DNA of 64,000 nucleotides, from positions 1 to 64,000 of IMG/VR virus record IMGVR_UViG_3300032293_001730, one strand, 5' to 3'. The notes beneath the pieces were generated by a model. It was not told where the DNA came from. It did not search any database and worked only from the letters and a program-made list of their open reading frames with translations. This DNA comes from a virus. The position numbers and the translations under genes are program-made. Below are positions 537 through 18,100 of the stretch, piece after piece (position 1 is the first letter of the stretch; every line of letters begins with the position of its first letter).

Positions 537-2144
537 ATACTACTTCGACGAAGACAAGGCCGCCCACGCGGTCGCGTTCTTCGAGCGGTTCCTCACGCAC
601 TCGAAGGGCCAGTTCGCCGGCCAGCCTTTTACGCTGCTCGACTGGCAGAAGAGCGACGTCATCGAGGAGCTTTTCGGATGGATGCGTGTCGACAACGACA
701 TGCGGAAGTACCGAGTCGGGTACATAGAGGTGCCTAAAAAAAATGGCGTCTTGGCCCCTGCGGCTGGTTGCCGTGGGGGCCAAGACGACAATGAGGCAAA
801 TCGACTCTTCTGTCCGGCATAGGCCTCTACACGATGGTCGCCGACGGCGAGCAAGCCGCTGAATGCTTCGGCTGTGCCACGTCGAGAGAGCAGGCTTCGA
901 TCGTCTACAAGCAGATGAAGGAGTTGGTCCAGGCCAGCCCATACCTGTCCGAGATGCTGGAGATCGTCGACTCCCGGAAGACGATCGCTTACGTTCCGAC
1001 GAACAGCTTCTGGAAGGTCATCTCCAGCGATGCCGGCCGGCAGGAGGGTTTGAACATCCACTCGCTGTGCTACGACGAGATTCACTCGGCCAAGGATCGC
1101 AAGCTCTGGGACGCGATCAGGTATGGCGGCATTTCCAGAAGCCAGAGCCTGATTCTGGCGATCACCACCGCTGGCGTGGACCGCAACTCGATCGGCTACG
1201 AACTGCATGACCACGCAATGAAATGCAGGCTCGACCCGAGCTATGACGAGCAGTTCTTCGCCTATGTAGCGGCCGCCGCGCCAGAGGATGACTACCGAGA
1301 CCCCGAGGTGTGGAAGGCGGCGAATCCATCCTGGGGCGTCACGATGGACGAGGAGAGCTTCCGCGCTGACGTCCGCGACGCCGAGCAGTCGAACTCCCGT
1401 CTTTCTGGATTCCTCAGGTACCGACTCAATGTCTGGACACAGGGCGACGGCAACAAATTCATCAAGCTCGATCAGTGGGACCGCTGCAAGGGCCTGTCTG
1501 GCAGCCTCGGCCTGGAGCGAGAGTGGTACGCCGGGCTCGATCTTGCTCAGACCTGGGACTGCAACGCATTCGTGGCGGTGAGCAAGGGTCCGGACGACGT
1601 ATTTGACGTGCTCTGCCGGTTCTGGATTCCCGGTGAGAACGCCGGTATCCGTTCGCAGAAGGACGGAGTCCCGTACACAACCTGGGCCAAGAACGAGTCG
1701 GTGGGCCTTACTCTCACGCCAGGGAACACCTGCGACTACTCGTTCATCAAGCGAGACATCCTCCAGTTCTGCAAAGAGCGAACTGTGCGGATGATCGCCG
1801 TCGATCCACACAACAGCCACTACCTCGTACAGCAACTTCAGGCGGAGGGCCTGAATGTGCAAGGATTTTCACAGTCGTTTGCCAGCATGAACCCCGGGAC
1901 GAAAGCGATCGAAAGTTTGATCGCCCAGGCCCGGCTGCGGACCAACGACAACCCTGTGCTGAATTGGATGGCCGGCAATGCGACGACGAAAGAAAACTCC
2001 GAGGGATACATCAAGGTCGTGAAGCCAAGCCCCATGAGTCCGCTGCGGGTCGACGGAATCGTCGCACTCATCATGGCGGTGTCGATTGCCAGCGACGCCG
2101 CCTCCGCCCCACCGACGCCTGAACCGGAGATTCTGATCCTATGA
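469..2144 (+). CDS. terL: Terminase large subunit in two frames (469-747 + 798-2144, ~541 aa if joined), interrupted in Walker A by a 50-nt hairpin gap
   Basis: 5' part has the adenine-binding region FTLLDWQ and YIEVPKKNG. 3' part continues GKSTLLSGIGLYTM, then Walker B CYDEIH, ITTAG, and nuclease motifs GLDLA and RVDGIVALIMA. Exact start codon uncertain. Confidence 0.9.
747..787 (+). other. 18-bp RNA hairpin filling the terL coding gap
   Basis: CGTCTTGGCCCCTGCGGC-TGGTT-GCCGTGGGGGCCAAGACG: 16 Watson-Crick pairs, 2 G-U pairs, 5-nt loop. Confidence 0.9.
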
Positions 2145-5100
2145 TCGAGGAAAACGCGGCGGTCAGCGACATTGTCTGGACACCGGCACGGGGTGAGAAC
2201 GAGCCCGACGTTCGCAGCATCTCGTGGAACAACATCCTCCTGTCGGACGAAGTCCACGGCGGGAAGTTTCTCACGTCCGCCGAGGTGCGGATCAATCCGG
2301 ACACGGCCCTTCAGTCGACTGTGTTCCTCGCAGCCTGCCGGATCATCAGCGAAACGGTGGCTGGATTGCCCCTTCTCGTCCATCGGCGTCTCAAGAACGG
2401 ACACGAAGAGATCGCGAGCGAGATTCCTCTCTCGCATGTCCTTGGATTCGCCCCCAACAGTTGGCAGACCAAGTTCGAGTTCTTCGAGCAGATGCTCATG
2501 GCCCTGACATGCTGGGGCAACAGCTACACCGAGGTGAAGTCTGGCAAGTACGGGAGCGTAACGGAACTCAACAACCTGCACCCGAGCCGAATGCGGATCG
2601 AGCGACTGGAGAACGGGCGTCTCAAGTACAGCTACAACGACCCGCAGACCGGCCGGATGATGCAGTACACGCAAGATCAGATCATGCACGTCCGCTGGAC
2701 GCCCGAGCCGGACGGCGTGAAGGGCATGGTGCCGGTCGAAGTGAGCCGCGACGCGATCGCGCTTGCTCGTGCGTGCGAAATCTACGCTTCAAAGTTCTGG
2801 GCAAACATGGGCCGCCCCGGCGTGGTGCTCCAAACGGACGGCGCGTTGTCCGCCGAGACCGCTGAGAGGCTCCGCGAGAATTGGGAGAGAATTCATCGCG
2901 GCGTCCAAAATGCTCATAGAACGGCCATCCTCACGAATGGACTCAAAATTGAGCCGTTCGGTGCGACAAATAATGATTCGCAATTTCTGGAGGTCCGGAG
3001 ATTTCAATGCGAAGAGATAGCTCGCTGCTTTCGGTTGCCGTTGCATTTGATTCAGGGGCAGTCAGGCGGCAACCTGGAGGTCCAAGGGCAAGAGTTCGTC
3101 AACTACACGCTGATGCCGTGGCTCACTCGCATCGAGCAGAGCATCAGCCGGTCGCTCATCTACGACGACGCGGTCTACTACGCCAAGTTTGACACGAAGG
3201 GGCTGCTCCGTGGCGACTCCGGGAGCCGCGCAAGCTGGTACTCGACCATGCTCAACCTGGGCGTGCTGTCGATTAACGACATTAGACGTGCCGAAGGGTA
3301 CGGTCCGCTCGGCCCTGAGGCCGACACGCACCTCGTGGCGATGAATTTGCAGCCTCTCGAAGAGGCTGTGAAGCCAAAACCGGACCCGTCGATGATGCCG
3401 GGCTTCGGTTCTGGTGCTCCGCCGAAGGCTCCGGGCGGTCCGCCGAGCCTCTCCGAGGTCAAAACAGGCAAGTCGCCGCTCGAATCTCCCAAGGGAGAGG
3501 ACTCGGCGAAGCAAAGGTCCGAGTCGAGGGAGCTTCTGCCGCAGGACGAGAAGCTCGAAGAGGCTCAGCAAGAGATCGCGGACGAGGACGGCAAGTGGAA
3601 CAAGACCGCCGCACACTACATCGAGAAGAATCCGTTCGCTTCCAGGGGCATCAAGTGCCACAACTGCACGCACTACTTCGAAGAAGGCGGCTGCAAGGTC
3701 GTCTCGGGCTCGATTAACGGCGATGCGATCTGCAAGTTGTGGGTGATCCCGACGGAAAAGATCGTGGATGGCCCTGAGCAGCGGGCATTTTGCCCAACGG
3801 GCGAGGGCGGCGGCGTGAAGAACGACTGCTCGCCGGCCGGGGGCAGCGAAGGCAAGCTGACGGCCTCCGAGGCTAGGGAAAAGTTTGAGCGATACAGGCC
3901 TTTCGTGTCAGTTGGTGACTCAAAAAACTCGGAAAACATTCGCGTCCCCCAGGACGAGGAGATTTCCGCTGCCCTCAAGGATGCGGACGTTCAGCAAAGC
4001 AAGATCGGCGCCAGCCGGAAGCTGCCGGATGGCACGCCGGTAGCTCTCCGCATCGACATACCTGCCTGGAATAAGTCGGAGGGCAAGACATACGTCGTTA
4101 CTGTCCATGAGGGCAAGAATCCAGAAGCAAAAAAGCCATTCGGCAGCGTACTTGGCTATGACTCCATGGCAATGCTGAGCGGTCCGGTGCGATTTTCTGC
4201 AAATGACGAAGACCGTGCCCAGCAAGTTGCCGAAGGAAAGAGCAAAACGCCTCTGGCGACTGTCAACGGAGCGTTTTCGGCAAGCAGAGACGTCCCTTCG
4301 GACATCGACTCGTGGACTCCCGTTGGGTACGACCCGCAGAAGGCCACTTATTTCTACGACAAGAGGACGGGCCAGGAAGTTGTGGGCGGAGTCGGCGCTC
4401 TGAGCGCTGGCAACACCGTCTTCACCCGCGAGCCGAAGTACGGAAACAGGAACGCGAAGACGCACTACCGCTCTCTTGAAGAGATGATGGCCGTCGACTC
4501 GTGGGGCCTTGAGTCTCGCGGGTTTTGCCCGACGGGCGAGGGCGGGGGCATCGACAACTCGTGTGGAGACAAGGACGGACAGGGCGGAGAAGACGGCAAT
4601 TCGTCTGATGGAAATGGTTCCAGCGGTGATTCGCCTTCAGACTGCCCGAAGCCATGCCACGATGTAGACGTCGAGGTAGACAAAAACCAGGACGGAGTGA
4701 CTGACAAGGCCCGCGTCGGCGTCCCGGCGATGGACGTGCCGCCACCACCGCCGATCCCCCGCATTCCAAACCTCGACGAGCGTGCTCGTGCAGTCGAAGA
4801 GTCGTTCATTGCTCACTACGAGGATGATCCCGAGGGCGTCGCGGGCCAGTTTCGCGAACTCGTGGGCTCGATGGGCGATCCGCCGACGTTCGGCACTGAC
4901 GACGCCAAGTGTTTGACCGATGCATGGAGCGATCCGGACCCCGAGTCACGAGCAGAGAACCGCGCGACGCTCAACACCTGCCTCCATCAGGCCGCAAACG
5001 CCATCGCTAAGCGAGCATTCCTCCAGCATCTCGACACGCTTAAAGAAGGCGACGAGATCATGGTGACGGTTGGCGGCTGCGGCGCAGGCAAGGGCTTCGC

Positions 5101-5608
5101 TCTCAAGAACAATCCGAAGGCCCTGGAGCAGAAGGGCAAGTCGAAGGCCGTGTGGGACTCCGCCGGCGACCAGAACGCGACTGAGAACCCGTGGATTCTC
5201 GCCGAGGCCGAGAAGCGAGGCCTCAAGGCGACGTTCGTGTATGTACACGCCGACCCAGAGAGGCAGTGGGCCGACCCTGAGCGTGGCGTTGTGAAGCGTG
5301 CGAGCGATCCGAAGGACGGCCGCATGGTCGACGCGAAGGTTTTCGCGGACAGCTATGCGATCGGAGCCAGGAACCACCACGCTTTCCATCAGGCCAACAA
5401 AGACAACGCCAGCGCATCGTTCGTGTTCCTCGATAACACGGGGAAGCCAAAGGAAGTCTCTGGTGTTCCGAAGGAAGCGCTCGCCTACGACTCGGCGAAG
5501 CTGGCCGAATTTGCTGAGCGAACGGTTGAAAAGTCATCGGCGCCGGACCGCGTGAAGACCGGCGCGTTGCAGGGCCGCAAGATTTGGGGCAAGGCGAAAA
5601 AGAAATGA
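2141..5608 (+). CDS. HK97-family portal with long C-terminal extension (Cys4 HiPIP-like module, unknown module, zeta-toxin-like P-loop kinase)
   Basis: First ~410 aa have HK97 portal motifs (TVFLAACRIISETVAGLPL, QFLEVRRFQCEEIARCFRLP, GVLSINDIRRAEG). Then KCHNC..C..CKLW, two RxFCPTG tags, and VTVGGCGAGKG..VYV..RA..GRMV. Confidence 0.88.
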   Translation: MIEENAAVSDIVWTPARGENEPDVRSISWNNILLSDEVHGGKFLTSAEVRINPDTALQSTVFLAACRIISETVAGLPLLVHRRLKNGHEEIASEIPLSHVLGFAPNSWQTKFEFFEQMLMALTCWGNSYTEVKSGKYGSVTELNNLHPSRMRIERLENGRLKYSYNDPQTGRMMQYTQDQIMHVRWTPEPDGVKGMVPVEVSRDAIALARACEIYASKFWANMGRPGVVLQTDGALSAETAERLRENWERIHRGVQNAHRTAILTNGLKIEPFGATNNDSQFLEVRRFQCEEIARCFRLPLHLIQGQSGGNLEVQGQEFVNYTLMPWLTRIEQSISRSLIYDDAVYYAKFDTKGLLRGDSGSRASWYSTMLNLGVLSINDIRRAEGYGPLGPEADTHLVAMNLQPLEEAVKPKPDPSMMPGFGSGAPPKAPGGPPSLSEVKTGKSPLESPKGEDSAKQRSESRELLPQDEKLEEAQQEIADEDGKWNKTAAHYIEKNPFASRGIKCHNCTHYFEEGGCKVVSGSINGDAICKLWVIPTEKIVDGPEQRAFCPTGEGGGVKNDCSPAGGSEGKLTASEAREKFERYRPFVSVGDSKNSENIRVPQDEEISAALKDADVQQSKIGASRKLPDGTPVALRIDIPAWNKSEGKTYVVTVHEGKNPEAKKPFGSVLGYDSMAMLSGPVRFSANDEDRAQQVAEGKSKTPLATVNGAFSASRDVPSDIDSWTPVGYDPQKATYFYDKRTGQEVVGGVGALSAGNTVFTREPKYGNRNAKTHYRSLEEMMAVDSWGLESRGFCPTGEGGGIDNSCGDKDGQGGEDGNSSDGNGSSGDSPSDCPKPCHDVDVEVDKNQDGVTDKARVGVPAMDVPPPPPIPRIPNLDERARAVEESFIAHYEDDPEGVAGQFRELVGSMGDPPTFGTDDAKCLTDAWSDPDPESRAENRATLNTCLHQAANAIAKRAFLQHLDTLKEGDEIMVTVGGCGAGKGFALKNNPKALEQKGKSKAVWDSAGDQNATENPWILAEAEKRGLKATFVYVHADPERQWADPERGVVKRASDPKDGRMVDAKVFADSYAIGARNHHAFHQANKDNASASFVFLDNTGKPKEVSGVPKEALAYDSAKLAEFAERTVEKSSAPDRVKTGALQGRKIWGKAKKK

Positions 5609-8600
5609 GCAAAGCATCCGAGCGGGCGACGGAATTGATCGAGGAGATCAAGAAAGCGGCCGGGATCGGCGACGGCCTCGTCGAGTGGTGGGCCGAGGAC
5701 GCCGATCGCGTCAACAAGATGGCCGAGAAGGCCAGGAAGTTCGCCGCCAAGGTGACGAAGGCCGGCAAAGAGGGCCGTGCCTACTGCCCGACCGGCAAGG
5801 GCGGTGGAGTCGACAATTCGTGCGGGGCCAAGCAGATGATGGCCCCGGACAAGGACGGGGGCGGCGGGGCTGGCGGAGGAAAGCCAGATGAATCCAAGAA
5901 GAGTGAGCCACTCACTCCGCAAAACATTCCGCAGGTGAACTTCAGGACTTCGGAAGTCTCGCATTCTGAGTTCATGGCATCGCGAGACAAGTCCACTCGG
6001 AAGCACAATTTCTCTGAGATTTCCGAGGAGAAGTTCGCCGAGTCTCAGATTTTTTTATCTTCCGACGGTACGGCCGGATGCCTCGTAGACAAAGACGGAG
6101 ACTTGGGAAACGTCTTCAACAACGACGGCCCCAAGAGGGCCGGCTCGGCGGCCGTCATCGAGGCGATCAAATCAGGCGCAAAAACGCTCGACTGCTACGA
6201 AGGTCATTTGACGACGCTATACTCTCAGTTGGGGTTCGTGCCCGTGGCGAAGCTCAGGTTCGTCGACGAGTACGCTCCCCCGGACTGGGACTACGAAAAG
6301 AACAAGAGGCCTGACGTCGTCGTCATGGCCTACCAAGGCGGCGATCGGCAGACGATTCAGAGTCGCGCTGGAACCTTCCCTCCCTACACAGCCCTTCCTG
6401 ACTCCGAGTACACAGATGACTTCGACGCGGCAAAAAGAACTGCAAGACTGGCGAGCGACTCTCACGAAGGACGAAGATCAGTACGTCGAGATGCTGATCA
6501 GCGTGAAGGGAGAGGAGTACGTCCTAGAGACGCTCGACTTCCTCAAGGATCAGTTGGAGACCGCGAGAACTCTCTAGAGTCTCGCGACGACTGCGTCCGC
6601 GATCCGAGCGGGAGATTCGGCGAAGGAAACAAGTGCCAGGAAGGCGCCGGAACAGGCGTCGAGGGGCAAGGCGTTCCTCGCGTTGTGGTCAACGTGGCGC
6701 AGCAAGCGATCTCATCGCCCTCAACAGCGAGGAGCGATGACGGAAAGTCGATCGTCAGTTCTTCTGTTGGCTCTCGCGAAGACGGGACGATCTATAAGTT
6801 CGGCGGCCGCGAGTATGTCAGCACGACAGCCGCCGGAAAGTATCTCGCGGACAGGCAGGCCGAGTCTCGTGGCCCGGCGATCGACTCCGCGAAACCCCTC
6901 GGCGACAAAGACCGCGAGTACGTCGCTGAATCACATGTAGCGCAAATACAAGCCGCCGCCGGCCGGGGCATCAAGCCAGTCTTCTACACGCCAGAAGAGC
7001 GACAGCGGCAGATTGACGAGTTCTCCAGGATTGAGCCTCGCATCAACGGGGGCAGGACAAAGGCTGGCTTCGAGGTCAGCCCTGAGAACGCGGAGTTTCT
7101 GTTCCGTGCCGTGCAGGCTTTGACAAGCTCAAACGCCAGTCCGTTCGCAAACATGCAGCGAACGGACTCCGTGCTGTCGAAGGTATTCGACGGCGACGGC
7201 CGAGTCTCGACTTCGACATCGTTCGGCGTTACCGGCGCAGCGATCAAGTCCTCACTGTCTCGCCTACAGGGGGTGATTGACACGCTCGGAAAGCGACCGG
7301 ACGGCTCAATTGATCCAGCTATGGGCCTAGACAAGACTCGCGACCTATTCACCGGCACAAAAATGCGAGCCGGCGATTTCGACAAGTTTTTTAGGGAGGA
7401 GTTCAAAGGCGAAGGGCCAAGCGTCAAATCATGGAAGCCGGGGAGCTTCCTTGTGGACCAGGAAGTACCTCTCTTCTGCACGTTCGGCCCAAAGTTCGGG
7501 TGCTTCTTCGCGAACAACACCGGCGACTCTGCGCCACTCACGGCCGACATCTGGGCGACTAGGACCTGGGGCAGGATCACCGGAGAGCTTGTGCAGGAAG
7601 CTAAGGCCGGAAAGGCTAAGGACCACGCCAATGAAACGCTGCGAGTGATCAAGGGCGCTAACGCCCAGCAATTGCATGGCGTTGACGGAAACCAGCTTGT
7701 CGACTCCCTGAAAAAAATGTCCGCCACTGGCGAGATCGACGACACCGTTCGTGCGTGGTCGAGCGCTCGGCTGCGGCACTATGCTTCGACTGACTACTCG
7801 GAGAAGCGTGGCACGGCCGGGAAGCTAAATAAGCTCGCCAAGAACATTGTTGAGAACGACACGTCGCTCATGGGCGACCCAGGCAGCGGCAAGCGACGCG
7901 CGAACATGATCGACGTCTACGACTCGATCAGCAAGGCTACCGGGCTTCCGGTCGCGTACGCGCAAGACGTCCTCTGGCAAGACGAGCAAGACGCCTACGC
8001 AGCACTCGGTGCCAAGACGGCAACAGAACAAGGCAAGCTGTCCTTCTACTCTGATCAGATCAGGAAAATTGCCGAAGACCAGTCAAATCGCATTGCCCGT
8101 GCAAAGAAAGAGCGACGCAACGAGTCGCAGCAAACCACCGGCGACTACGACGACTACGAGACGGGCGGCCGCGAGAACCTCTTGTACTGGGAGATGATCA
8201 GCCACCTGTCCGACGAGCAGTTCGTGAAAATCCTTCTCGACATCGAAGGACGCACTTCGGAGCGAAGGGCATTTTGCCCGACGGGCGAAGGCGGCGGCGT
8301 CGACAACTCGTGCTCGACGGACGATTCGCCCGGCGATGCGGGAGAGGGCGGCGGGGGCGATGCCGGTGGCTCCGGTCCCGAGATCAACATCGGCGACAAG
8401 CGAGAGGAAATCGACCGTCGCCTGGATTCGATGGGCGTCGTCGAGGATGACGTTGTCAGCATGGCAGGCGGCGCGTCCGACGGGACGTATGTCTTCATGC
8501 GTCGGGACCATGACCACGAAGGCGGCGACGGCCTGCATGTCGAGACCACGCGAGACGTGGCCGGCGTGAAGGGTGGCCTATTCAGCCAGTCTGTCATTTA

Positions 8601-11600
8601 CAACGCAGGGCCTGCCGAAGACCCGGAGATTGTCGTCGATCACAAGCTGATGGACGTGAAGACGGACGTGAGCCGCGACCCGGAGAAGCGGCACGCAGCC
8701 GCTCGCGAGTTCTTCCGGATTATGACGGGGAGCGTCGAGGCCTCGATCAAGCAAGGCGTCTCGAAGGTTACGCTCAACGCGGCGGGTGATCCACGGCAGG
8801 CCCGAGATGGCATGTTCAAGGGCTACACCATCTGGCCTCGCATGGGATTCGACGCCCCGATTCCTTTTCATGTTCGCAACAAGCTGCCCGAGACTCTCTC
8901 GCACTGCCGCAGCTTGATCGACCTACACGCGACACCCGAAGGCACGAGGTGGTGGCGAGACAACGGCACGGACCTCGACGTTCAGCTTGACCTGACTAGG
9001 CCCGACAGCCCGCAGATGCAGATTTTCGGCAAGTTCGTCCGGCACTTTGAGCGAAGCCGCCGCGAGCTTGCTGTTGGCGAGGGCCTCGACTGGCTGTCCC
9101 CGGAGGACACCGCCAAGCTCGAAGAGTTGTGGGAAGAGATTTGGGACGACGGGCTGCTCGACGACTACGAGGGCGAATCAGAAGATTTCTCGACTCTTGA
9201 GAAGAGAGCATTCTGCCCCACCGGCGAAGGCGGCGGGATCAAGAACGACTGCTCGGCGTCGGATGGCGGCGGCTCTTCGGTAAAGGAACTGGACAACTCC
9301 TGGGAAGACTCGGAAGAGATTGTCGCGGTGTACGAGGGCAAGGACCTCGAAAGACGCCCGCCGATCGAGGGCGCTGAAAAGCTGCGATCCCTTGCAATCG
9401 AGAGCCCGGTCGACATGAAGTCTGCCCTGGACGAGATGGGAGTTTCGCTGTCGGACGCCGTGACCATGTGCGCGGCGCCGTCCGAGGGCACGACAGTCAT
9501 CGTGTCTCCCGAGCATCCATACGATTCGATGGGGCTGGGGACACCGGGCGAAGAGAGCAAGGCCGTTGCGTTCGTGATGACCACGAAGGACGTGTCTGGC
9601 ATCAAAGACGCCCTCGACAGTAACTCGTCTCTGAGAAAAACCAGCGACGGCGAGCTTGTCCTTGAGTATCACGCGTTCCACGCATCGGCAGAGGCCCAAG
9701 AGAAAGCCGCCGTCGCATGCGCGAAGGAAGTGATCGGCGGCGTTATCAAGAGCGTGTCGCTCGCCGAGAAGAGCGGCGTCTCCGAGATTCGCCTCGATGC
9801 CGCCGGCAGCAAAGACAGCGAGGCGTTCAAGGGCTACCGAATGTGGCCGAAGTTCGGCTTCGACGGCGTGATCCCGAGGAAGATGCTCACCCGGCTTCGA
9901 GAAGCCGATCTTTCGCCACGGGCCGTCGCCGAGAAGCGGGCCGGCAAGCTGACGATCCAGGCCTTGTACGAAACGAAGGCCGGGCAGAAGTATTGGGAGG
10001 ATCGGGGACAGGAAATCCCAATGTGGCTCCGCCCAGGCGACCAGAGCACTCCCGGCTGGGAGCGTTTCAAGGCGTATCGGCAACGGCTCGGCAAGCTCGC
10101 CGAGAACCGGAGCTTTGAGGCCGGCGACGAAATCTTCTCTGACGAAGAACTGAAGAAGCTCGAAGAGTTGTGGGAAGAGTTTCGTAAGGAGTCCGGCGAG
10201 AAGCGAGGCTTCTGCGCGACGGGCGAGGGCGGTGGCATCGACAATTCGTGCGGCTCCGACGGCAAGGCGTCTCCTCCGCCTGTCGAGCCTGCCGGCCTTG
10301 ATGTAGCCATGCCATCCAAGAACGGATGGAAGAGCCAAGAGGCGGTTGTTTATTGGGACAAAAATTCGCTGAGCGGGTCAGTCAGTCCGTCGAAGTTACT
10401 GAAGGCCGCCAACTCTTTCACCGTCGTTGACGGGGCAGAGCTTAGCGGTGTTCTCAAGAACACAGGCATCTCGCTTGACGATGCCATTCGCGTCATGGCC
10501 TCGTCGGACGATGACGTGAACATCATCGCCACCGCCGGCGACACGGCCTACGCGATGGGTCGAATGAGCGGCGAAGGCGGCGGCGTAGCCAGCGACAGTG
10601 AGTTCACTGTCGTTTCGAGGAAGGACGTCGACGGCGTGACCAACGCGATCACCGTCACTACTTCCATGAAGAGGCACGAGTCCGGCGAGCTTGAGTTGAA
10701 GTACACGCTTTTAGACGTGTCTCCGGAGGTAAAGGAAAACTCCCGAATCTCGATCGCTCGCCAAATGATGACGTCTGTCACTGCCAGCATCGCCGCCGCC
10801 GAAGAGGTCGGCGTCGACACCATCACGATGCGTGCCGCAGGCGACGCGAGCAACGATCGGTACAAGGGCTACAGAATCTGGCCGCGACTGGGGTTCGACG
10901 GAGAGATTCCCCGAAATCTTGTGACGCGAACGTGGTCCCCGATGAAGGGCGTGTTCAACAGCTACGGCGACAAGATTCCAGACTCTGTTCTCTCTCCCAA
11001 GGCGAGGCAGGAGAAGGCCGGCGGGAAGCTCACCATCCAGTCGCTGTACGAGACAAAAGAAGGACAGCGGTGGTGGGAGAAGTACGGCGGCGGCATGTCT
11101 ATGTCGCTCAGCGTAAGCGACAAGGAGAGCCAGGGCTGGAAGGTCTACTCGAAGGTTCGAGAGCGTTTCGGCAAGTCGTCGCGTGACCTGCTCTCGGCCA
11201 TCGCGGAAGCGTGGATCGAGCGTCGGGCATTTTGCCCAACGGGCGAGGGCAACGGCATCGACAACTCGTGCTCCCCGAAGATGGCCGCCGACAAGGATGG
11301 CGGAGGCGGCGGATCAGCAACGTCATCGCGTTGGGGCGGCGACGAAGCCAACTGGGGGACGTCGAGCGGAACCGAGATTTGGACTCCTGGCAAGCCTCTG
11401 TTCGCGGGCTCTGAGTCGCTCGCGGCCATCAAGATTCACAAGCCAGACGACATCCGCCAGCGGATCGTGGATGGTCTTGGGATGACGGTAGCAGAGGCCG
11501 TGCTGGCGTCGGGCCCCATCAAGGAAGCTGCCGATCGCGCGAGCATCACGCGGCCACGCCTTGAGATCATTCCGCAGCAATTCGGAGACGGCATCGAGAT

Positions 11601-12315
11601 GCACTGGTCCGCGATGGGCGTCGCCACTGGCGAGGGATTTCAGGACGACGAGAAGCAGTTCGCGAAATCCGGCACTGCCGTGAAGGCTGTCGAGGCTTCG
11701 AGAAACATTTCCAAAGGCCGCGACGGCAATGTCCTGCATATGGCGGGGTTCTTTGTTCATCCAGACTTCCAGGGCAAGGGCCTCGCCCTGGAGTCCGTCT
11801 CGAAGTCGGTGTCCTCTGGTGCCGTCCGTCTCGTGATGGAGGCGGAGCGGTTTGATACTGCGAACCCAAACATGAGGATGACTGGGTACCACGTCTGGCC
11901 GAAGTACGGATACGACGCGCCGATCGCCGACGTAGCCAGGGCTCTCCGATCGGGCAGCATTCCTGAGCAGTTTGCAAAGGCCAAGTCCCTCCTCGACATC
12001 TACGCGATGCCCGGTGGACGCGAGTGGTGGAGAGAGAACGGCGGCGCGATCAAGCTCACGTTCGACGCCCGCCCGCGAAGCAAGAGCCGAGAAGCTCTGA
12101 TAAAATTCCAGGATCGGACAAAGGAGCGTCGCAGCATGCCGGCACCAGATAGCTCGCGTCGTGGCATCGACTGCGACAACGATCCGATCCTGGACGAAGT
12201 CTGGGACGAGATTCAGGAGAACGGCCTCAGCGGCGAAGCCCCGAGTCAGGAAGACTGGGACCGCTGGGACAAAGAAGACCAGGAGGCCAAGGATGGCAAA
12301 GCCCGAGAAGTATAG
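5605..12315 (+). CDS. Large polyvalent head-associated protein (~2,236 aa): GNAT-like module, HhH-glycosylase-like module, four paralogous GNAT-like modules
   Basis: ATGA overlap with the portal stop. Modules are separated by six Cys tags. Motifs: LDCYEGHLTTLYSQLGF..YAPPDW; GPKFG.FF.N...TADIW; four copies of GY.xWP.xG[FY]D..[IL]...G..[WY]W. Domain names are by recognition only. Confidence 0.75.
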   Translation: MSKASERATELIEEIKKAAGIGDGLVEWWAEDADRVNKMAEKARKFAAKVTKAGKEGRAYCPTGKGGGVDNSCGAKQMMAPDKDGGGGAGGGKPDESKKSEPLTPQNIPQVNFRTSEVSHSEFMASRDKSTRKHNFSEISEEKFAESQIFLSSDGTAGCLVDKDGDLGNVFNNDGPKRAGSAAVIEAIKSGAKTLDCYEGHLTTLYSQLGFVPVAKLRFVDEYAPPDWDYEKNKRPDVVVMAYQGGDRQTIQSRAGTFPPYTALPDSEYTDDFDAAKRTARLASDSHEGRRSVRRDADQREGRGVRPRDARLPQGSVGDRENSLESRDDCVRDPSGRFGEGNKCQEGAGTGVEGQGVPRVVVNVAQQAISSPSTARSDDGKSIVSSSVGSREDGTIYKFGGREYVSTTAAGKYLADRQAESRGPAIDSAKPLGDKDREYVAESHVAQIQAAAGRGIKPVFYTPEERQRQIDEFSRIEPRINGGRTKAGFEVSPENAEFLFRAVQALTSSNASPFANMQRTDSVLSKVFDGDGRVSTSTSFGVTGAAIKSSLSRLQGVIDTLGKRPDGSIDPAMGLDKTRDLFTGTKMRAGDFDKFFREEFKGEGPSVKSWKPGSFLVDQEVPLFCTFGPKFGCFFANNTGDSAPLTADIWATRTWGRITGELVQEAKAGKAKDHANETLRVIKGANAQQLHGVDGNQLVDSLKKMSATGEIDDTVRAWSSARLRHYASTDYSEKRGTAGKLNKLAKNIVENDTSLMGDPGSGKRRANMIDVYDSISKATGLPVAYAQDVLWQDEQDAYAALGAKTATEQGKLSFYSDQIRKIAEDQSNRIARAKKERRNESQQTTGDYDDYETGGRENLLYWEMISHLSDEQFVKILLDIEGRTSERRAFCPTGEGGGVDNSCSTDDSPGDAGEGGGGDAGGSGPEINIGDKREEIDRRLDSMGVVEDDVVSMAGGASDGTYVFMRRDHDHEGGDGLHVETTRDVAGVKGGLFSQSVIYNAGPAEDPEIVVDHKLMDVKTDVSRDPEKRHAAAREFFRIMTGSVEASIKQGVSKVTLNAAGDPRQARDGMFKGYTIWPRMGFDAPIPFHVRNKLPETLSHCRSLIDLHATPEGTRWWRDNGTDLDVQLDLTRPDSPQMQIFGKFVRHFERSRRELAVGEGLDWLSPEDTAKLEELWEEIWDDGLLDDYEGESEDFSTLEKRAFCPTGEGGGIKNDCSASDGGGSSVKELDNSWEDSEEIVAVYEGKDLERRPPIEGAEKLRSLAIESPVDMKSALDEMGVSLSDAVTMCAAPSEGTTVIVSPEHPYDSMGLGTPGEESKAVAFVMTTKDVSGIKDALDSNSSLRKTSDGELVLEYHAFHASAEAQEKAAVACAKEVIGGVIKSVSLAEKSGVSEIRLDAAGSKDSEAFKGYRMWPKFGFDGVIPRKMLTRLREADLSPRAVAEKRAGKLTIQALYETKAGQKYWEDRGQEIPMWLRPGDQSTPGWERFKAYRQRLGKLAENRSFEAGDEIFSDEELKKLEELWEEFRKESGEKRGFCATGEGGGIDNSCGSDGKASPPPVEPAGLDVAMPSKNGWKSQEAVVYWDKNSLSGSVSPSKLLKAANSFTVVDGAELSGVLKNTGISLDDAIRVMASSDDDVNIIATAGDTAYAMGRMSGEGGGVASDSEFTVVSRKDVDGVTNAITVTTSMKRHESGELELKYTLLDVSPEVKENSRISIARQMMTSVTASIAAAEEVGVDTITMRAAGDASNDRYKGYRIWPRLGFDGEIPRNLVTRTWSPMKGVFNSYGDKIPDSVLSPKARQEKAGGKLTIQSLYETKEGQRWWEKYGGGMSMSLSVSDKESQGWKVYSKVRERFGKSSRDLLSAIAEAWIERRAFCPTGEGNGIDNSCSPKMAADKDGGGGGSATSSRWGGDEANWGTSSGTEIWTPGKPLFAGSESLAAIKIHKPDDIRQRIVDGLGMTVAEAVLASGPIKEAADRASITRPRLEIIPQQFGDGIEMHWSAMGVATGEGFQDDEKQFAKSGTAVKAVEASRNISKGRDGNVLHMAGFFVHPDFQGKGLALESVSKSVSSGAVRLVMEAERFDTANPNMRMTGYHVWPKYGYDAPIADVARALRSGSIPEQFAKAKSLLDIYAMPGGREWWRENGGAIKLTFDARPRSKSREALIKFQDRTKERRSMPAPDSSRRGIDCDNDPILDEVWDEIQENGLSGEAPSQEDWDRWDKEDQEAKDGKAREV
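6416..6577 (+). CDS. Nested out-of-frame small acidic helical protein (53 aa)
   Basis: ATG 6416 to TAG 6577 reads MTSTRQKELQDWRATLTKDEDQYVEMLISVKGEEYVLETLDFLKDQLETARTL with G/C-ending codons, while the host frame becomes Arg-rich and off-frame-like. Confidence 0.6.
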   Translation: MTSTRQKELQDWRATLTKDEDQYVEMLISVKGEEYVLETLDFLKDQLETARTL

Positions 12316-14536
12316 CCACATTAACTTCAAGCCCCCTTCCGGCGCCCGCCGCGAAGCGGAGTACGGCCTCAAGCTCCGCCGCGAGTACGGCCGTGGCGGC
12401 ACTGCCGTCGGCATCGCACGCGCGAGAGACTTGTCGAACGGCACCGAAGTCTCGCCTTCGACAGTGCGACGCATGAAGGCATACTTCGATCGGCATGCAT
12501 CTGACCAGCAAGGCGAGGGTTTCGATCGCGGGGATAAGGGCTGGCCCTCAAATGGCTACATCGCCGCGAAGCTCTGGGGTGGATTCCAGAGCGGCTACTC
12601 GTGGGCGAAGAAGGTCGTCGAGCAGATGAACGCCGCCGACGAGAAGGAAGGCCGATCTTATAGTCCGGATACGGTAGCCCGTAGCATCGAGAGCAAGGAG
12701 ACCGCGATGGACAATGTCGAGCGTCGGTACTTGGCGGCATCGGGCACCGAGAACGCCACGGAGGGCTCGCTCAATGTCGAGCACCGTGCCGACCCTGAGA
12801 CGGGCGAGCGTCGGACGTACCTTGTGGGGTACGCTGCGAAGTTCCGCACCGATTCGTTGCTCTTGGGGGATTTTGTCGAGCAAATTGCCCCCTCGGCGTT
12901 CGAGATCGTCGAGAAGGGGAAGGACCTCGAAGGCCGTCCCCTGGAGACTCGCGGTCTGTTCAACCACGATCCGAATCACCTCATCGGCCGCTACCCAAAC
13001 ACGATGAAGCTCGTGGTCGACAAGCTCGGACTCAAGTACGAGATTCTCTTGCCCGAGAGCCGCCAGGACATCGCCGAAATGGTGGCTCGCGGGGACCTCA
13101 AGGGAAGCAGCTTCAGTTTCATTTGCGCAGAAGGCGGGGAAAAATGGACCCGCGAAGGCGGCAAGAGCCGCCGACTTGTCACAAAAATTAAGGCGTTGCT
13201 GGACTGCGGCCCAGTGACCTACCCGGCGTACAGGGATAGCTCTGTTGCCGTTGCAAAGCGGAGCTACGAACACTTCATCGCGAGTGAGCCCACGCCTGCC
13301 GTGATGGAGCCACCGACGCCAAAGATCGACGTCAGCGAAGAGATGCGGAAGTGCCAGGAGTTCATCGCCGAGCGTCGCGGCTTCTGCCCGACGGGCCCAG
13401 GCGGCGGGATCGATAACTCGTGTGGCGGGAAGGGAGGTGGATCGTCCGAAGGCAAACCTGACGACGACACCGGCGCCGATATTTACGCCGACTCAACGCC
13501 GGCCATTGCGGGCGCGGCCACCGGCGCGGCGATAGGTGCAATCGCCGGAGTGCCCGGGGCAATTGTTGGCGGTTTCGCTGGCCTTGTGGCAGGGGCCGTC
13601 AGCGTCGACCGCTACGTCGCAAAGGTCGAGAAAGCTCTCAAGAAGTTCGGTTCTTCCGTCAAGAAAATCGATTCATTCGCAAGAACACTCGGGAAGTCAA
13701 TGTCCATCGCGGCCGGAAAGAACGGCAGCGTCGAGGCCGAGGGCGGTGGCGTCAAGCTGTCCATTCAGAAGTACAGCAAAGAAGAGGTCGGAAGCAGCCT
13801 TTCCGGTCGAGTTGCGTTTGTCGAGGGAGCAACCAACGCGATCGGCGGCAAAGGCACCGAAAGCGTCGGCCTCCTCGCGAAGACATTGATCAAGGCCGGC
13901 AGAGACCTCGGCGTCGACCACATCATGGTCGCTCTCGACACGATGGACAGACTTGAAGAAGACACGTTTGTCGACGCCGGCTTCACGCATTCGATCGCAG
14001 CCGACGACGCCACTCGCGTCACGATGATCAAGTCTTTCGGGAAGAAGTCGTCCAAGCGTTACGACGAGTTCCTCGACTTCTACCGCGAGCGTCGCGGCTT
14101 CTGTCCGACGGGCCCAGGCGGCGGCGTCGACAACTCGTGCGGCGGCAAGGGCGACTACAAGGAGTGGGACAAGGGCGACCACAAAGACAAGTCCAAGGAG
14201 AAGGACGCCCAGGAGTTTCTCGACAAGGCACGCGAAGGTCAGCTTGCCCGTGGAGGCAAGGACGGAGGCAAGGCCGACGACGGCGGTGGCGTCCAGACCT
14301 GGAGCAAGGGCGAGCATTATCCGTGGACTGCCAAGCAGGTTGGAGACAAGGACGGCTACGTCCAGGGCCAACACCCGGACGGCAGCAAGACCGAGAAGTA
14401 TGAGTTCAAGGACGGTAAGACGTCCGAGGCATACGCTAAACTTTCCGCTGAGTTGAAGAGCAAGCCGAAGAAGCGTGCCGTCGACCCACGGCAAGTCATC
14501 GACGACACGCTGAGGTTCCTCAAGGACCGCCGCTGA
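12293..14536 (+). CDS. HK97-family prohead protease with N- and C-terminal extensions
   Basis: Motifs LVGYAAKF, FVEQIAPSAF, LFNHDPN, GSSFSF, GPVTYPAY. AGGAGG precedes ATG 12293, and a second AAGGAG/ATG (12707) sits at the start of the protease domain. Two Cys tags in the C-terminal extension. Confidence 0.88.
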   Translation: MAKPEKYSHINFKPPSGARREAEYGLKLRREYGRGGTAVGIARARDLSNGTEVSPSTVRRMKAYFDRHASDQQGEGFDRGDKGWPSNGYIAAKLWGGFQSGYSWAKKVVEQMNAADEKEGRSYSPDTVARSIESKETAMDNVERRYLAASGTENATEGSLNVEHRADPETGERRTYLVGYAAKFRTDSLLLGDFVEQIAPSAFEIVEKGKDLEGRPLETRGLFNHDPNHLIGRYPNTMKLVVDKLGLKYEILLPESRQDIAEMVARGDLKGSSFSFICAEGGEKWTREGGKSRRLVTKIKALLDCGPVTYPAYRDSSVAVAKRSYEHFIASEPTPAVMEPPTPKIDVSEEMRKCQEFIAERRGFCPTGPGGGIDNSCGGKGGGSSEGKPDDDTGADIYADSTPAIAGAATGAAIGAIAGVPGAIVGGFAGLVAGAVSVDRYVAKVEKALKKFGSSVKKIDSFARTLGKSMSIAAGKNGSVEAEGGGVKLSIQKYSKEEVGSSLSGRVAFVEGATNAIGGKGTESVGLLAKTLIKAGRDLGVDHIMVALDTMDRLEEDTFVDAGFTHSIAADDATRVTMIKSFGKKSSKRYDEFLDFYRERRGFCPTGPGGGVDNSCGGKGDYKEWDKGDHKDKSKEKDAQEFLDKAREGQLARGGKDGGKADDGGGVQTWSKGEHYPWTAKQVGDKDGYVQGQHPDGSKTEKYEFKDGKTSEAYAKLSAELKSKPKKRAVDPRQVIDDTLRFLKDRR

Positions 14537-16317
14537 TGAGTCTCTCGACAGACTGCCGTATCGCAGCCCTGGTCGCCTTCTCGCAGGCCCGCGCCATGGG
14601 CACGGGAACGAACGCAGGCGGCGGTGCCATCACTGGAGCGGCAGATTGCGGCCGCGATCCGGACGGGAAGTTTGGTGCTGGCAACACCTGCGGCATCGGC
14701 ATCGGCATCAACGACTCCACCCAGGAATTCACGACGCAGATTCTTTCCGGCCAGAAGACAGTTGAGACTCGCCCTACAAACTCGCTTCGCCCTTACATCG
14801 GCAAGACGGTTGGCATCGTGCGAACTGGTAAAGGCAAGGCAACGCTCGTAGGCACGATGAAGATCGGGGAGCCGAAGTTCTATAAGTCGAAGAAGGACTT
14901 CGACGCGGATCGCAAGAAGCACCTCGTCTCTCCAGGGAGCCCGCATTACATCACTGCCGTCGGAAAGTACGGATACCCTCTTTCCGAGGTGCGTCCCGTC
15001 AAGCCGATTGAACTCGACACGAAGGGGTACGTCGGCCGGAGGATTCCGAAGTCGGTCCGAAGCGACGAACTTGAGTACGACCTCGACGGCGTGGAGATGC
15101 GAGCATTCTGTGCGACTGGCTCAGGCGGTGGCGTCGACAACTCGTGCGGCATCTCCAACAGCAAGGGCGAGCGAATCCGCAACGTCCGCACCAAGTCTGA
15201 CAAGATGCAGACGAAGGTGGCCCGCAAGCTCTACCAGATGCGTACCACGGAGAAGCAGATCAAGAAGCTGATCCGTGACCTGGGTGGCAAGGTCAGCAAC
15301 TCCATCGTGGAGATCGAGTCCACGCGAGGTGAGGAAGGCGTCAACATCTTCATCCGGGACCGCGACAACAACGAGACGCATTTCATTCACATGGGCTACT
15401 ACGGCGCAGCCATCTACACGAGCGACAAAGTCTCGAACGACGAGGCGAAGCGGATCAGAGCCGTCTCCGAGGAAGCGTTCCCGAAGACGATCGACAAGCG
15501 GCTCTACGGGCGTGGGAAGAAGTACAATATCGACGTCGTCAACGATCCCACGCAGACGAAGACGGCCTGGGACGGCCTGTCGTCGAAGCAGCGTTTCAAG
15601 GCGAAGCTCGACGCCCGCTACGCCAGCCTGCTCGCGTTCGCGGAGTCTCGTGATTGCGGGCGGGACGAGGACGGCAAATTCTCGTCAGGAAACACCTGCG
15701 GCTCCGGAGTCGCCGCCGCTGCCGCAACCGGCGCCGTCAAAGGCGCCGTCAAAGGAGCGATCACTGGCCTTCTCACTGGGGGCCCTGCCGTCGTGAAGCC
15801 GGCCGCCGCGATCGGCGCTGCCACCGGGGCCGTGAAGGGCATCTACGATAACCAAATGCGGCCGACGCGAGTGAAGAAAACGATCGAGCGGCTTGGCATG
15901 GACGTGAAGCAGGTCGGCAATCTCGTCGAGAAGCTCGGCGGCACTCCCGAATCATCTGCCGACACGAAGGGTGGCTCGCTGCGTCTTACGATCAAAGACA
16001 AGGAGGGCAAGAAGACCTTCAGTGTCGAGGTCGATAAGAAAACGATCACCGTCTACCCAAGGCGAGCCACGGGCGAACTGACAACGAAGGAAATCTCCCG
16101 AGTCAAGGAAATCGCCGACAAGTCCACGCCGAAGTCGATCTCAGTGGTTGTGAAGAAGAGTTCTTCTGCCTACGTCTCGAAGCTCGTGCGAAATGGATTC
16201 ACTGTTGCCGCCGGCAACGCCGGTGACATCTTGGTGGCGACATATCTCACTGCACCCGTTCATTCGTTCGCAAACGATGCCGTTCAGTCGGTCAAGAAAA
16301 CGTTTTCTCGAAGGTAA
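14536..16317 (+). CDS. Multi-module head-region protein with ASCH-like domain and three Cys tags
   Basis: ILSGQKTVETR is an ASCH GxKxxExR motif; tags at ~14644, 15100 and 15649. Confidence 0.7.
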   Translation: MSLSTDCRIAALVAFSQARAMGTGTNAGGGAITGAADCGRDPDGKFGAGNTCGIGIGINDSTQEFTTQILSGQKTVETRPTNSLRPYIGKTVGIVRTGKGKATLVGTMKIGEPKFYKSKKDFDADRKKHLVSPGSPHYITAVGKYGYPLSEVRPVKPIELDTKGYVGRRIPKSVRSDELEYDLDGVEMRAFCATGSGGGVDNSCGISNSKGERIRNVRTKSDKMQTKVARKLYQMRTTEKQIKKLIRDLGGKVSNSIVEIESTRGEEGVNIFIRDRDNNETHFIHMGYYGAAIYTSDKVSNDEAKRIRAVSEEAFPKTIDKRLYGRGKKYNIDVVNDPTQTKTAWDGLSSKQRFKAKLDARYASLLAFAESRDCGRDEDGKFSSGNTCGSGVAAAAATGAVKGAVKGAITGLLTGGPAVVKPAAAIGAATGAVKGIYDNQMRPTRVKKTIERLGMDVKQVGNLVEKLGGTPESSADTKGGSLRLTIKDKEGKKTFSVEVDKKTITVYPRRATGELTTKEISRVKEIADKSTPKSISVVVKKSSSAYVSKLVRNGFTVAAGNAGDILVATYLTAPVHSFANDAVQSVKKTFSRR

Positions 16318-16324
16318 GGAGCCT

Positions 16325-16516: not shown

Positions 16517-16630
16517 TGTTGTGTGGCACAACACTTTCTCTTTCTCCCTTCTTCGGGTGAGTGATCGCTCCCAAATAGTTTGAACGTGTGGCACCTGTTT
16601 GCCGCACTCACAAACTAGGAAGCGAATCAC

Positions 16631-18100
16631 ATGGAAGCCTCGTCCAAGGTCAAGCAACTGCTCGACGAACTCGCCGCCGTCCTCGCTGAGATGGGCGCCC
16701 TCCAGGATGCGGGCGGCATCGAAGACACCGAGGTCGAGCACGACGCTGCCGACAAGGCCGGCATGGAAGAGGACGAGACCAAGTCCGAGTCTCCCGAAGA
16801 GGAGTACGAGGAGGAGGAGGCCAAGGAAAAGAAGATTCGCTGCCTCTGCGAGCGTGCCGAGAAGATTCGCGACCGCATCAAGTTCTACGAGTCGGTCGCA
16901 GCGAAGGAGCTTGAGCTTCGCACCGTCCTGGACAAGGCGACCCCCGCTTCGGTGGCTGCCGTTTCTCCCACCACCCCGGCCAAGGAGGGCCGATCCGTGA
17001 CCCAGATTTATCACAACCTTCCCGGTGCCGGTCGTCTCCGTGGCTTCAAGGGCCCCAACGCCGAAGAGCGTGCTTACCGCGCTGGCATGTTCTACAAGGC
17101 CCAGCTTTTTGGTGACAAGGACGCTGCCCGCTGGTGTGCTGATCACGGCGTGATCGACAGCCGTGCGATGGGCGAAGGCGTCAATTCGCTCGGCGGAATT
17201 TTCGTAAATGAGGAAGTGCTCAATGAGGTGATCGTCCTTGTCGAGCAGTACGGTGTGTTCGCCCAGAACGCCCGCAACGTCAACATGCAGTCGGATACCC
17301 TCGTGGTGCCCCGGCGAGTTGGCGGCCTCCAGGCCTATTTTATTGGCGAGAACACGAGCATCCCGGATTCGGACGCCAGTTGGGATCGCGTGCAACTGAT
17401 CGCAAAAAAGGTGGCCGTTTCCAACAGGATTTCTTCAGAGCTTTTGCAGGACTCGGTACTCTCGTTGGGAGATTATTTGACCACCGAAACAGCGAGAGCC
17501 ATCGCGATTCTCACGGATCGCGTGGGCTTCGTTGGTACGGGCTCCGGTGAAGACGGCGGTATCGTTGGTGCTGCGACGAAGATCGCCGACGGCAGCCACA
17601 ACGGCGGCCTCGTGACGGCCGCGACCGGCAACACGTCGGCCACGACCCTCACGATCGACGACTTCGTGAACACCGCAGCCCGCTTGCCTGTGTACGCGAG
17701 GGCGCGTGCGGCATGGTACTGCTCGCCGGCCGTGTTCGCTGCCAGCGTGCAGCGTCTCGGCCTGACGAACCAGGGCAAGCTGACGGGCGGCAACAACGCC
17801 TCGAACCTCGCCGAAGCTCCCGAGATGCGTCTCCTCGGCTACCCGGTGAACTTTGTTCACACGATGCCGAGCAACCTGGGCGTCGACGCCGGCAAGGTGC
17901 AGTTCCTGCTCGGCGACCTGTCGCTCAGCACGATGTACGCGACCCGTCGCGGCCTCCAGATCAAGACCAGCGTCGATCGCTACGCTGAGCTTGACCAAAC
18001 CTTGATCGTGGCGACCACGCGCTTCGACGCGGTTACGCACGACTGCGGAGACGGCACGAAGGCTGGCCCGCTCGTCGGTCTCCGCACGGCTCTCTCCTGA
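16631..18100 (+). CDS. Major capsid protein, HK97 fold with N-terminal delta/scaffold domain
   Basis: Acidic coiled-coil N-terminus, then RAMGEGVNSLGGIFV, ISSELLQDS, LLGYPV, GDLS..Y, RFD. Confidence 0.92.
   Translation: MEASSKVKQLLDELAAVLAEMGALQDAGGIEDTEVEHDAADKAGMEEDETKSESPEEEYEEEEAKEKKIRCLCERAEKIRDRIKFYESVAAKELELRTVLDKATPASVAAVSPTTPAKEGRSVTQIYHNLPGAGRLRGFKGPNAEERAYRAGMFYKAQLFGDKDAARWCADHGVIDSRAMGEGVNSLGGIFVNEEVLNEVIVLVEQYGVFAQNARNVNMQSDTLVVPRRVGGLQAYFIGENTSIPDSDASWDRVQLIAKKVAVSNRISSELLQDSVLSLGDYLTTETARAIAILTDRVGFVGTGSGEDGGIVGAATKIADGSHNGGLVTAATGNTSATTLTIDDFVNTAARLPVYARARAAWYCSPAVFAASVQRLGLTNQGKLTGGNNASNLAEAPEMRLLGYPVNFVHTMPSNLGVDAGKVQFLLGDLSLSTMYATRRGLQIKTSVDRYAELDQTLIVATTRFDAVTHDCGDGTKAGPLVGLRTALS

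Follow-up and report, generated by a model that had tools for sequence, protein, structure and literature searches.

A cysteine-loop tag at candidate prohead-protease junctions in the head polyproteins of an uncultured tailed phage

The portal, a giant protein, the prohead protease and a 593-aa protein encoded in the head gene block of an uncultured tailed phage (IMG/VR virus record IMGVR_UViG_3300032293_001730) carry thirteen copies of a short cysteine-loop tag, twelve of which directly follow a Glu-x-Arg motif. These proteins are probably cargo polyproteins built on head proteins and cut by the S78 prohead protease, with each released module keeping a cysteine tag at its N-terminus, and this is the best-supported reading for the clade on the comparative evidence given below. 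The DNA analysed, referred to as the window throughout, comprises the first 64 kb of the 93.9-kb record, which is estimated to be 96% complete.

Under the mechanism proposed, the four open reading frames (ORFs) would encode polyvalent cargo polyproteins in which some 15 modules are joined by 13 copies of a junction element. This element would consist of the end of the upstream module, often a helix, the sequence E-x-R/[AG]-[FY]-C-P-T-G-x-G-G-G-[IV]-[DK]-N-[SD]-C (a slash here and below marks the candidate cleaved bond), a Gly/Ser/Asp linker and the next module, with D-C-G-R-D-x-x-G-K-F-x-x-G-N-x-C as the alternative tag. The polyproteins would enter the procapsid through fusion to, or co-assembly with, the portal and protease, where the active S78 protease would cut after the Arg residue, as in the scaffold domain of the capsid protein itself. 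The modules would thereby be freed inside the head with a disordered Cys-loop peptide and a flexible linker as their new N-terminus, and would exit with the DNA at infection.

Results and discussion

Tag copies in the head gene block

Six-frame scanning of the whole window with the regular expressions C-[PA]-T-G-x-G-x-G-x-x-N-x-C (tag A) and C-x-R-D-x-x-G-[KR]-F-x-x-G-N-x-C (tag B) recovered exactly ten copies of the former, with C-x11-C spacing, and three of the latter, with C-x13-C spacing. All thirteen are encoded on the plus strand within the portal, giant, S78 protease and 593-aa ORFs (Table 1), and neither pattern was matched outside these four ORFs in the 64 kb. A degenerate DNA pattern gave ten forward and no reverse matches in the 93.9-kb record, and a control with the pattern read backwards gave none. 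The motif E-x-R-[AG]-[FY] directly precedes all ten copies of tag A, and ESR-D(D) precedes two of the three copies of tag B. The third copy, at 14647, is preceded by GAAD, with the sequence QAR/AMGTG located 17 residues upstream. A Gly/Ser/Asp spacer after the tags is present in the sequence logo. The broader motif [EDQ]-x-R-[AG]-[FYWM] is found 15 times in the window ORFs of at least 150 aa, and 13 of these matches fall in head genes. No tag accompanies three of the 13: two of these lie within the scaffold domain of the capsid protein and the third within the leader of the 593-aa ORF. An earlier note, made from the letters of this DNA alone, had counted ten copies of tag A and three of tag B in four head ORFs, had placed twelve of the thirteen behind E-x-R or ERR, and had seen the capsid boundary DSR/AMGEG echoed by QAR/AMGTG in the 593-aa ORF. 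The scan reproduces these counts exactly, the tag B at 14647 is the exception among the thirteen, and both boundaries are present.

Another short motif, x-K-(M)-M-A-[AP]-D-[KR]-D-[GS]-G-G-G, is located directly 3' of some tag A copies (5824-5868 and 11272-11313 in the window), and similarly follows tag A in the loci L009, L024, L037, L047, L053 and L071.

The prohead protease and its candidate cleavage site

The prohead protease encoded in the window looks active, since its His (nt 12965-12967) and Ser (nt 13109-13111) residues align with H65 and S114 of HK97 gp4, which are taken to be the catalytic residues of the S78 protease, and are invariant in 21 relatives. The protease core is modelled by AlphaFold2 (AF2) with a predicted local distance difference test score (pLDDT) of ~90. 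In the capsid alignment, HK97 gp5 ...TFNK/SLGSDADSAGSLI stands opposite the window capsid ...IDSR/AMGEGVNSLGGIF, residue for residue, the bond between K103 and S104 being the known cut in gp5. The aligned junction reads [ED]-x-R/A in 22 of 22 related capsids, at identities down to 32%, and is the same motif as that which precedes the tags. A further tag-less E-E-R-A-Y motif in the scaffold (delta) domain, kept in nearly all related capsids, may represent a second protease site.

Other viral contigs supplied 203 unique tag contexts, in which conservation of the flanks was scored only at positions outside the search pattern. Relative to the first Cys, E occupies position -5 in 71% of these contexts, R position -3 in 87%, A or G position -2 in 94% and F or Y position -1 in 93%. 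The residue at -3 is constant within a protein and differs between lineages, where it may be R, K, N or L. Two phages with an S78 protease and an HK97-type capsid carry tags after Lys (DSK/AF-C and SIK/SF-C), and their aligned capsid junctions read WHK/TIF and EQK/ALI. As Lys is found at both types of site in these two phages, the P1 residue covaries between the cargo junctions and the capsid junction. Furthermore, protease ORFs naturally end in ...F-L-K-D-R-R at the stop codon, the same helix as that before the internal tags (QEFIAERR/ and FLDFYRERR/), and the terminal modules therefore already resemble cleavage products. The E-x-R motif is very probably the site of the prohead protease, as the earlier note had proposed, a reading supported by inference from the capsid junction match and the K/K covariation.

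Protease ORF ends of the form ...TLRFLKDRR occur in the window (14500-14536) and in L015, L019, L024, L035, L053, L103 and L125, sometimes with one additional Ala. In L166 (3947-7282), Peptidase_S78 and AAA ATPase domains are joined in one 1,112-aa ORF, located 5' of an HK97-type capsid gene, the product of which has a 283-residue N-terminal region.

Tags as leaders of exchangeable modules

The position of the tag within its carriers was evaluated in 170 Met-initiated representative tag proteins. In 52 of these, no more than 50 residues separate the first tag from the N-terminus (the closest is at residue 6), but a last tag equally near the C-terminus occurs in a single protein, and at least 110 residues usually come after the last tag. 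The median tag spacing is ~310 residues. This asymmetry supports the interpretation that the tag forms the leading end of the downstream module, in line with the claim of the earlier note that each tag leads a module.

Relatives of the window proteins hold the same modules in the portal, the giant or the 593-aa-type ORF, and the breakpoints coincide with the tags. In other contigs the giant ORF encodes the module that follows the first tag of the portal ORF, GNAT-like modules are found in portal ORFs, and the modules of the 593-aa ORF occur in the portal or giant ORFs of relatives. In L009 and L116 the portal and giant ORFs are fused. Where tag B leads a module, its orthologues may carry tag A instead, and the two tags align in MAFFT with a single 2-residue gap. 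Because of this replacement the tags appear interchangeable, and on sequence grounds tags A and B are taken to be functional equivalents.

Occurrence of the tag among other viruses

Scanning of IMG/VR with the exact pattern gave at least 116 stretches. Profile searches of phage proteomes, to see whether the tags are limited to head-module genes and stand before variable domains, had been proposed in the earlier note. A profile built from 140 tag sequences and searched against 1.84 billion representative proteins of metagenomic clusters recovered 868 clusters at E<=1e-3 and 304 at E<=1e-10, and the flanks of the tag proved conserved as described above. The tag proteins contain up to 10 tags each and reach 4,059 aa. 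The tag is nearly absent from prokaryote genomes, with only three short contigs of metagenome-assembled genomes containing it among 185,579 prokaryote species genomes. A 35-aa tag query (tblastn) found no match among 50,697 cultured-phage records, a result for which the low-complexity filter is possibly responsible, and tblastn of whole tag proteins against the cultured phages gave matches to individual modules only. In these searches the tag is thus common, but limited to uncultured viruses. Pfam, NCBIfam and PHROGs hold no model of the tag, and literature searches with the motif strings returned nothing relevant on it. As far as these family libraries and this literature were searched, the tag and its junction grammar are undescribed, in agreement with the earlier note.

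Among 34 tag carriers drawn at random, 14 contain a MuF domain. Other domains in this sample include ADPrib_exo_Tox, ART-PolyVal, 2H phosphoesterase, InPase, Zeta_toxin, ParB-like nuclease, Acb1, GNATs and portal. The link to virion-delivered effectors drawn in the earlier note is borne out to the extent that relatives of the tagged proteins in this sample hold classical domains of this kind. Portals of four families, namely the HK97-, lambda-, Mu- and portal_3-type, are encoded upstream of the tag in the loci analysed, with ART domains downstream. The tie to an HK97-type protease which the earlier note had made is too narrow, as the tag also occurs in lambda-, Mu- and portal_3-type head modules, where N or L replaces R. 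One tagged MuF polyvalent protein (L137:6974-10570) additionally contains Peptidase_C39_2 and HNH domains, and an Asn-class MuF polyvalent protein (L131:4208-6613) includes a tag-B-like D-C-E-R-D-P-K-G-R-C stretch at residues ~620-640.

Nature of the tag

Both cysteines are invariant in 583 tags. Position 10 of the tag is Asn in 333 tags and Pro in 208, and the Pro class reads [TV]-x-N-[VA]-F-CPTGxGGGVDP[TS]C-SPGG. The tag and linker are modelled by AF2 with a pLDDT of 31-39 beside a confident module and 33-37 beside the confident protease core. With low values for the tag in two contexts and confident neighbours, the possibility that the tag is a folded part of the neighbouring domains was rejected. 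In the AF2 model of protease and tag there is no docking in cis and the tag stays disordered. The lipobox, the sulfatase motif and the RTX repeat were discarded on inspection as their patterns do not fit. Judged from its sequence and distribution, the tag is a portable short linear motif common to very different phage lineages.

The best guess as to the role of the Cys loop is that it acts as a handle, either for holding or ordering the modules in the capsid or for their entry into the portal/tail channel, perhaps with its two invariant cysteines binding a metal or forming disulfides. As different head types share the tag, a general partner (a metal, DNA, another tag or the channel) is more probable than a lineage-specific protein. 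A wider generalisation, which is put forward tentatively and is rather doubtful, holds that the Cys loop is a universal portable "cargo header" of tailed viruses, independent of head type, which specifies capsid retention and/or ordered passage through the portal and tail. A header combined with the protease site of the respective lineage would then yield injected cargo.

Modules encoded by the four ORFs

About 15 modules, split by the tags and by low-complexity linkers, are encoded in the four ORFs. The carriers are obligatory head proteins, as the earlier note had it. The portal ORF comprises an HK97-type core (residues 62-386), a Cys4 segment, tag A, a 226-aa module, a further tag A and a 341-aa P-loop module with a weak match to AAA_30 in Pfam. 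In the giant ORF, which matched no Pfam family, a 65-aa leader is followed by tag A, module A, tag B and a 539-aa module for which viral DUF7178 clusters are nearest in the protein atlas, and then by four GNAT-like paralogues that have diverged from one another and each stand behind a tag A. The fourth of these paralogues has an AF2 predicted template modelling score of 0.75, and its best Foldseek matches are all of the GNAT fold, at weak E-values of 3e-3 to 6e-2. The protein encoded by the protease ORF has a phrog_2859 domain at its N-terminus, followed by the S78 core and a helix; tag A then leads a Gly-zipper module, and after a second helix another tag A leads a 127-aa module, with ...FLKDRR at the C-terminus. 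In the 593-aa ORF, the leader ...AFSQAR/AMGTG precedes tag B and a 136-aa module with a weak ASCH hint; a 164-aa module behind tag A comes next, and the second tag B introduces a Gly-zipper with a 200-aa module. Hints below the Pfam threshold among the window modules are a GNAT motif in the fourth paralogue, ASCH, Gly-zipper and L5 gp82. PDB sequence searches with three window modules gave nothing usable, and no head ORF of the window matched MuF (PF04233). Two AF2 models show independent folded units. The ~12 kb of effectors announced in the earlier note is an overstatement for the window, where a weak likeness to the GNAT fold was seen for a single module type and the others could not be identified.

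The portal extension (3461-3784) contains a four-cysteine segment, KCHNC-x9-C-x13-CKLW, ahead of the first tag, which is kept in 14 relatives and has no match in Pfam. Gly/Ala-rich hydrophobic helices of the glycine-zipper kind follow a tag at 13500-13600 (protease ORF residues ~448-480) and 15709-15840 (593-aa ORF residues ~392-435), both with weak Pfam Gly-zipper matches.

Alternative explanations

Several points weigh against the reading of these proteins as cut cargo. Cleavage, packaging and ejection are all deduced from sequence comparison. The residues E(-5) and R(-3) could belong to a small hairpin together with the tag, rather than to a protease site, and the disorder in the AF2 models may reflect a metal site which is not modelled. 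The K/K covariation involves two related capsids and a conservative K/R difference. In the largest other class the residue at -3 is Asn (T/V-x-N-[VA]-F), and neither an S78 protease nor an HK97-family capsid was detectable in the loci of this class, where genes for portal_3, MuF, DUF2213 and a DUF6260-type capsid are present. A cut site for this class was sought in the DUF2213 protease/scaffold proteins, where the candidate TANQW is not conserved, and no capsid site was derived there. Lastly, most of the window's own modules match no identifiable family and are at best candidate effectors.

If the junctions were left uncut, the Cys loops could serve as metal or disulfide nodes (two tags per Zn, or disulfides) holding the polyproteins together in the capsid, with E-x-R-A-F as part of the mini-structure. 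The invariance of the cysteines in 583 tags would suit such nodes, as would the swapping of D9/S11 with K9/D11 around N10, as if a local geometry were kept, and the conservation of [AGV]-F before the first Cys in all classes, in contrast to the variable position -3. Since AF2 cannot model metals, the low pLDDT says nothing on this point. This explanation is nevertheless considered improbable, as each tag offers two ligands and matches no Pfam or other family, and the flank is identical to the capsid maturation junction, which itself has no Cys loop. Furthermore, the -3 residue is uniform within a lineage and changes together with the capsid junction, and the terminal modules naturally end in ...RR at the stop codon. 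A zinc ribbon or zinc knuckle, with four Cys/His ligands per unit, was rejected on the basis of the two Cys per tag and the lack of a match in Pfam, NCBIfam and PHROG. Improbable too, and ranked below the uncut nodes, is the idea that the 18-20-residue element is merely an extended recognition site of the protease, from P5 to P15', and has no function after cleavage. The element always accompanies a candidate cut site in this clade, and the mature capsid start AMGEGVNSLGG and the 593-aa ORF leader AMGTGTNAGGG loosely resemble the T-G-x-G-G-G of the tag. The capsid site, however, works without a Cys loop, and the tag core is kept in other head types without a detectable S78 protease, with N, K or L in place of R. 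The 13-15 residues on the P' side far exceed what a protease groove usually reads, and many tags lie 6-20 residues from the N-terminus, where a cut releases nothing useful.

A DNA-level role, in which the tag would mainly be a conserved GC-rich junction for homologous recombination during module swaps and the peptide a by-product, is very unlikely. The shuffling breakpoints do coincide with tags, the codon identity of the ten copies is 0.64 as opposed to 0.50 expected from codon usage, and Ser is always encoded by TCG, but third codon positions otherwise vary freely (TGC/TGT, CCA/CCG/CCC, ACG/ACC/ACT, GAG/GAA), and a purely DNA-level repeat was rejected on this account. Conservation of the peptide extends to hundreds of clusters at 50% identity and to classes whose flanks differ, a single reading frame and strand are used throughout, and tag B, which is unrelated in DNA, substitutes for tag A. 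The least credible proposal, with hardly any probability attached to it, is that of a self-cleaving peptide which acts without a protease through Asn cyclisation or a labile Asp-Pro bond. D-N-S and D-P are chemically labile and the tag occurs with several head types. No single chemistry, however, accommodates both the N of one class and the P of the other at position 10, the 13 predicted-disordered residues provide no fold to strain a bond, and the adjoining protease-type site accounts for cleavage more simply. Release of tagged cargo modules by the prohead protease remains the preferred reading.

Features of the head gene block

The region at 2141-18100 is a classical HK97-type head block, in which Pfam and NCBIfam models recognise, in this order, an HK97-family portal, an S78 (HK97 gp4-type) prohead serine protease and an HK97-family major capsid protein. 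The giant ORF and the protease ORF overlap the preceding genes (at 5584-5608 and 12161-12315, respectively) if the first TTG/GTG is used as start. A terminase-like region at 60-2144, 5' of the portal, is divided between the ORFs 60-536 and 834-2144.

Table 1. Positions of the head ORFs, tag junctions and tag-less candidate cleavage sites in the window
Feature	Position (nt)	Strand	Cys-to-Cys (nt)	Sequence and remarks
Portal ORF	2141..5608	+		1,155 aa; PF04860 E=1.2e-93, TIGR01537
Junction 1, portal ORF	3776..3829	+	3791-3829	EQR/AF-CPTGEGGGVKNDC, tag A
Junction 2, portal ORF	4511..4564	+	4526-4564	ESR/GF-CPTGEGGGIDNSC, tag A
Giant ORF	5584..12315	+		2,243 aa from TTG 5584; likely start ATG 5605
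Junction 3, giant ORF	5770..5823	+	5785-5823	EGR/AY-CPTGKGGGVDNSC, tag A; then KQMMAPDKDGGGG motif
Junction 4, giant ORF	6577..6636	+	6592-6636	ESR/DD-CVRDPSGRFGEGNKC, tag B
Junction 5, giant ORF	8260..8313	+	8275-8313	ERR/AF-CPTGEGGGVDNSC, tag A
Junction 6, giant ORF	9199..9252	+	9214-9252	EKR/AF-CPTGEGGGIKNDC, tag A
Junction 7, giant ORF	10198..10251	+	10213-10251	EKR/GF-CATGEGGGIDNSC, tag A
Junction 8, giant ORF	11218..11271	+	11233-11271	ERR/AF-CPTGEGNGIDNSC, tag A; then KMAADKDGGGG
Prohead protease ORF	12161..14536	+		PF04586 (Peptidase_S78) E=4.7e-28, TIGR01543; likely start ATG 12293
Junction 9, protease ORF	13370..13423	+	13385-13423	ERR/GF-CPTGPGGGIDNSC, tag A; directly after protease C-terminal helix QEFIAERR
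Junction 10, protease ORF	14087..14140	+	14102-14140	ERR/GF-CPTGPGGGVDNSC, tag A
593-aa ORF	14536..16317	+		
Tag-less candidate cut site, leader of 593-aa ORF	14584..14598	+		QAR/AM; echo of capsid junction
Tag B, 593-aa ORF	14647..14691	+	14647-14691	CGRDPDGKFGAGNTC; R not immediately upstream
Junction, 593-aa ORF	15094..15147	+	15109-15147	EMR/AF-CATGSGGGVDNSC, tag A
Junction, 593-aa ORF	15643..15699	+	15655-15699	ESR/D-CGRDEDGKFSSGNTC, tag B; then Gly/Ala-rich hydrophobic helix
HK97-type major capsid protein	16631..18100	+		PF05065 E=5.9e-34, TIGR01554; 178-residue N-terminal scaffold (delta) domain
Second tag-less motif, delta domain	17063..17077	+		E-E-R/A-Y; kept in nearly all related capsids
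Putative capsid maturation site	17156..17173	+		DSR/AMG; aligned to HK97 gp5 K103/S104

Implications and comparison with known systems

The choice of capsid cargo is understood in few model phages, among them T4, with its capsid targeting sequence (CTS), and HK97, with its protease tail. In phages of unrelated head types, the tag stands at the beginning of exchangeable cargo modules, beside a predicted protease site, and offers a testable grammar for the loading and release of cargo. It also provides a simple way of finding injected effectors, including anti-defence enzymes, in metagenomes, and may serve as a compact label for the packaging of foreign proteins into phage particles. The exchange of modules between polyvalent proteins is also seen to take place at defined junctions.

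The S78 protease gp4 of HK97 reportedly cuts the delta domain of gp5 between K103 and S104 and is encapsidated through its C-terminal region, findings attributed to Duda, Oh and Hendrix in 2013. The window shares with HK97 the portal, protease and capsid families, the aligned capsid junction with a basic P1 and a small P1' residue, and a C-terminal helix after the protease core. The HK97 proteins are, however, single-module, and gp3, gp4 and gp5 lack both the Cys-loop tag and the cargo modules.

In T4, the CTS marks IPI-III and Alt for packing into the head and delivery to the host, and these proteins are processed by the gp21 prohead protease (PMC9026906). Like the CTS, the tag is a short portable peptide beside a prohead-protease site. 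The CTS, however, is a single N-terminal propeptide of 10 residues that precedes the cut (P side) and is lost on processing; it lacks cysteines and is restricted to T4-like phages. The tag, in contrast, lies on the P' side and would be kept, recurs within polyproteins, is found in phages of four portal families and does not resemble the CTS in sequence. In the giant phages SPN3US and phiKZ, the prohead protease cleaves many head-internal proteins at a short motif, and these proteins are ejected into the cell (PMC5694885, PMC7411985). These proteins differ from those of the window in being encoded by separate genes and in being processed by a T4-gp21-type protease at another motif, and no Cys loop is known to have been described for them.

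Virion-packaged polyvalent or processed cargo is a known kind of system, described for the phage-type polyvalent proteins by Iyer, Burroughs, Anand, de Souza and Aravind in 2017 (PMC5512222) and for the MuF polymorphic toxins by Jamet et al. in 2017 (PMC5576092). The texts of both papers make no mention of a cysteine/glycine motif, linker or junction peptide. Processing in the polyvalent systems is credited to zincin-like metallopeptidase domains, none of which was seen in the window, and the window lacks the MuF domain of the MuF toxins, although MuF is common in other tag carriers. As in both of these systems, the tagged proteins are large multi-module proteins located beside or fused with the portal, MuF or prohead protease, for which packaging into the head and injection are predicted. 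The window proteins similarly combine several unrelated domains per polypeptide, include fusions to the portal and S78 protease, and are encoded between the portal and capsid genes. Domains of the published polyvalent proteins, namely ART-PolyVal, ADPrib_exo_Tox, 2H, InPase, ParB-like nuclease and GNAT (PMC5512222), are likewise present in the tag-bearing relatives of the window proteins.

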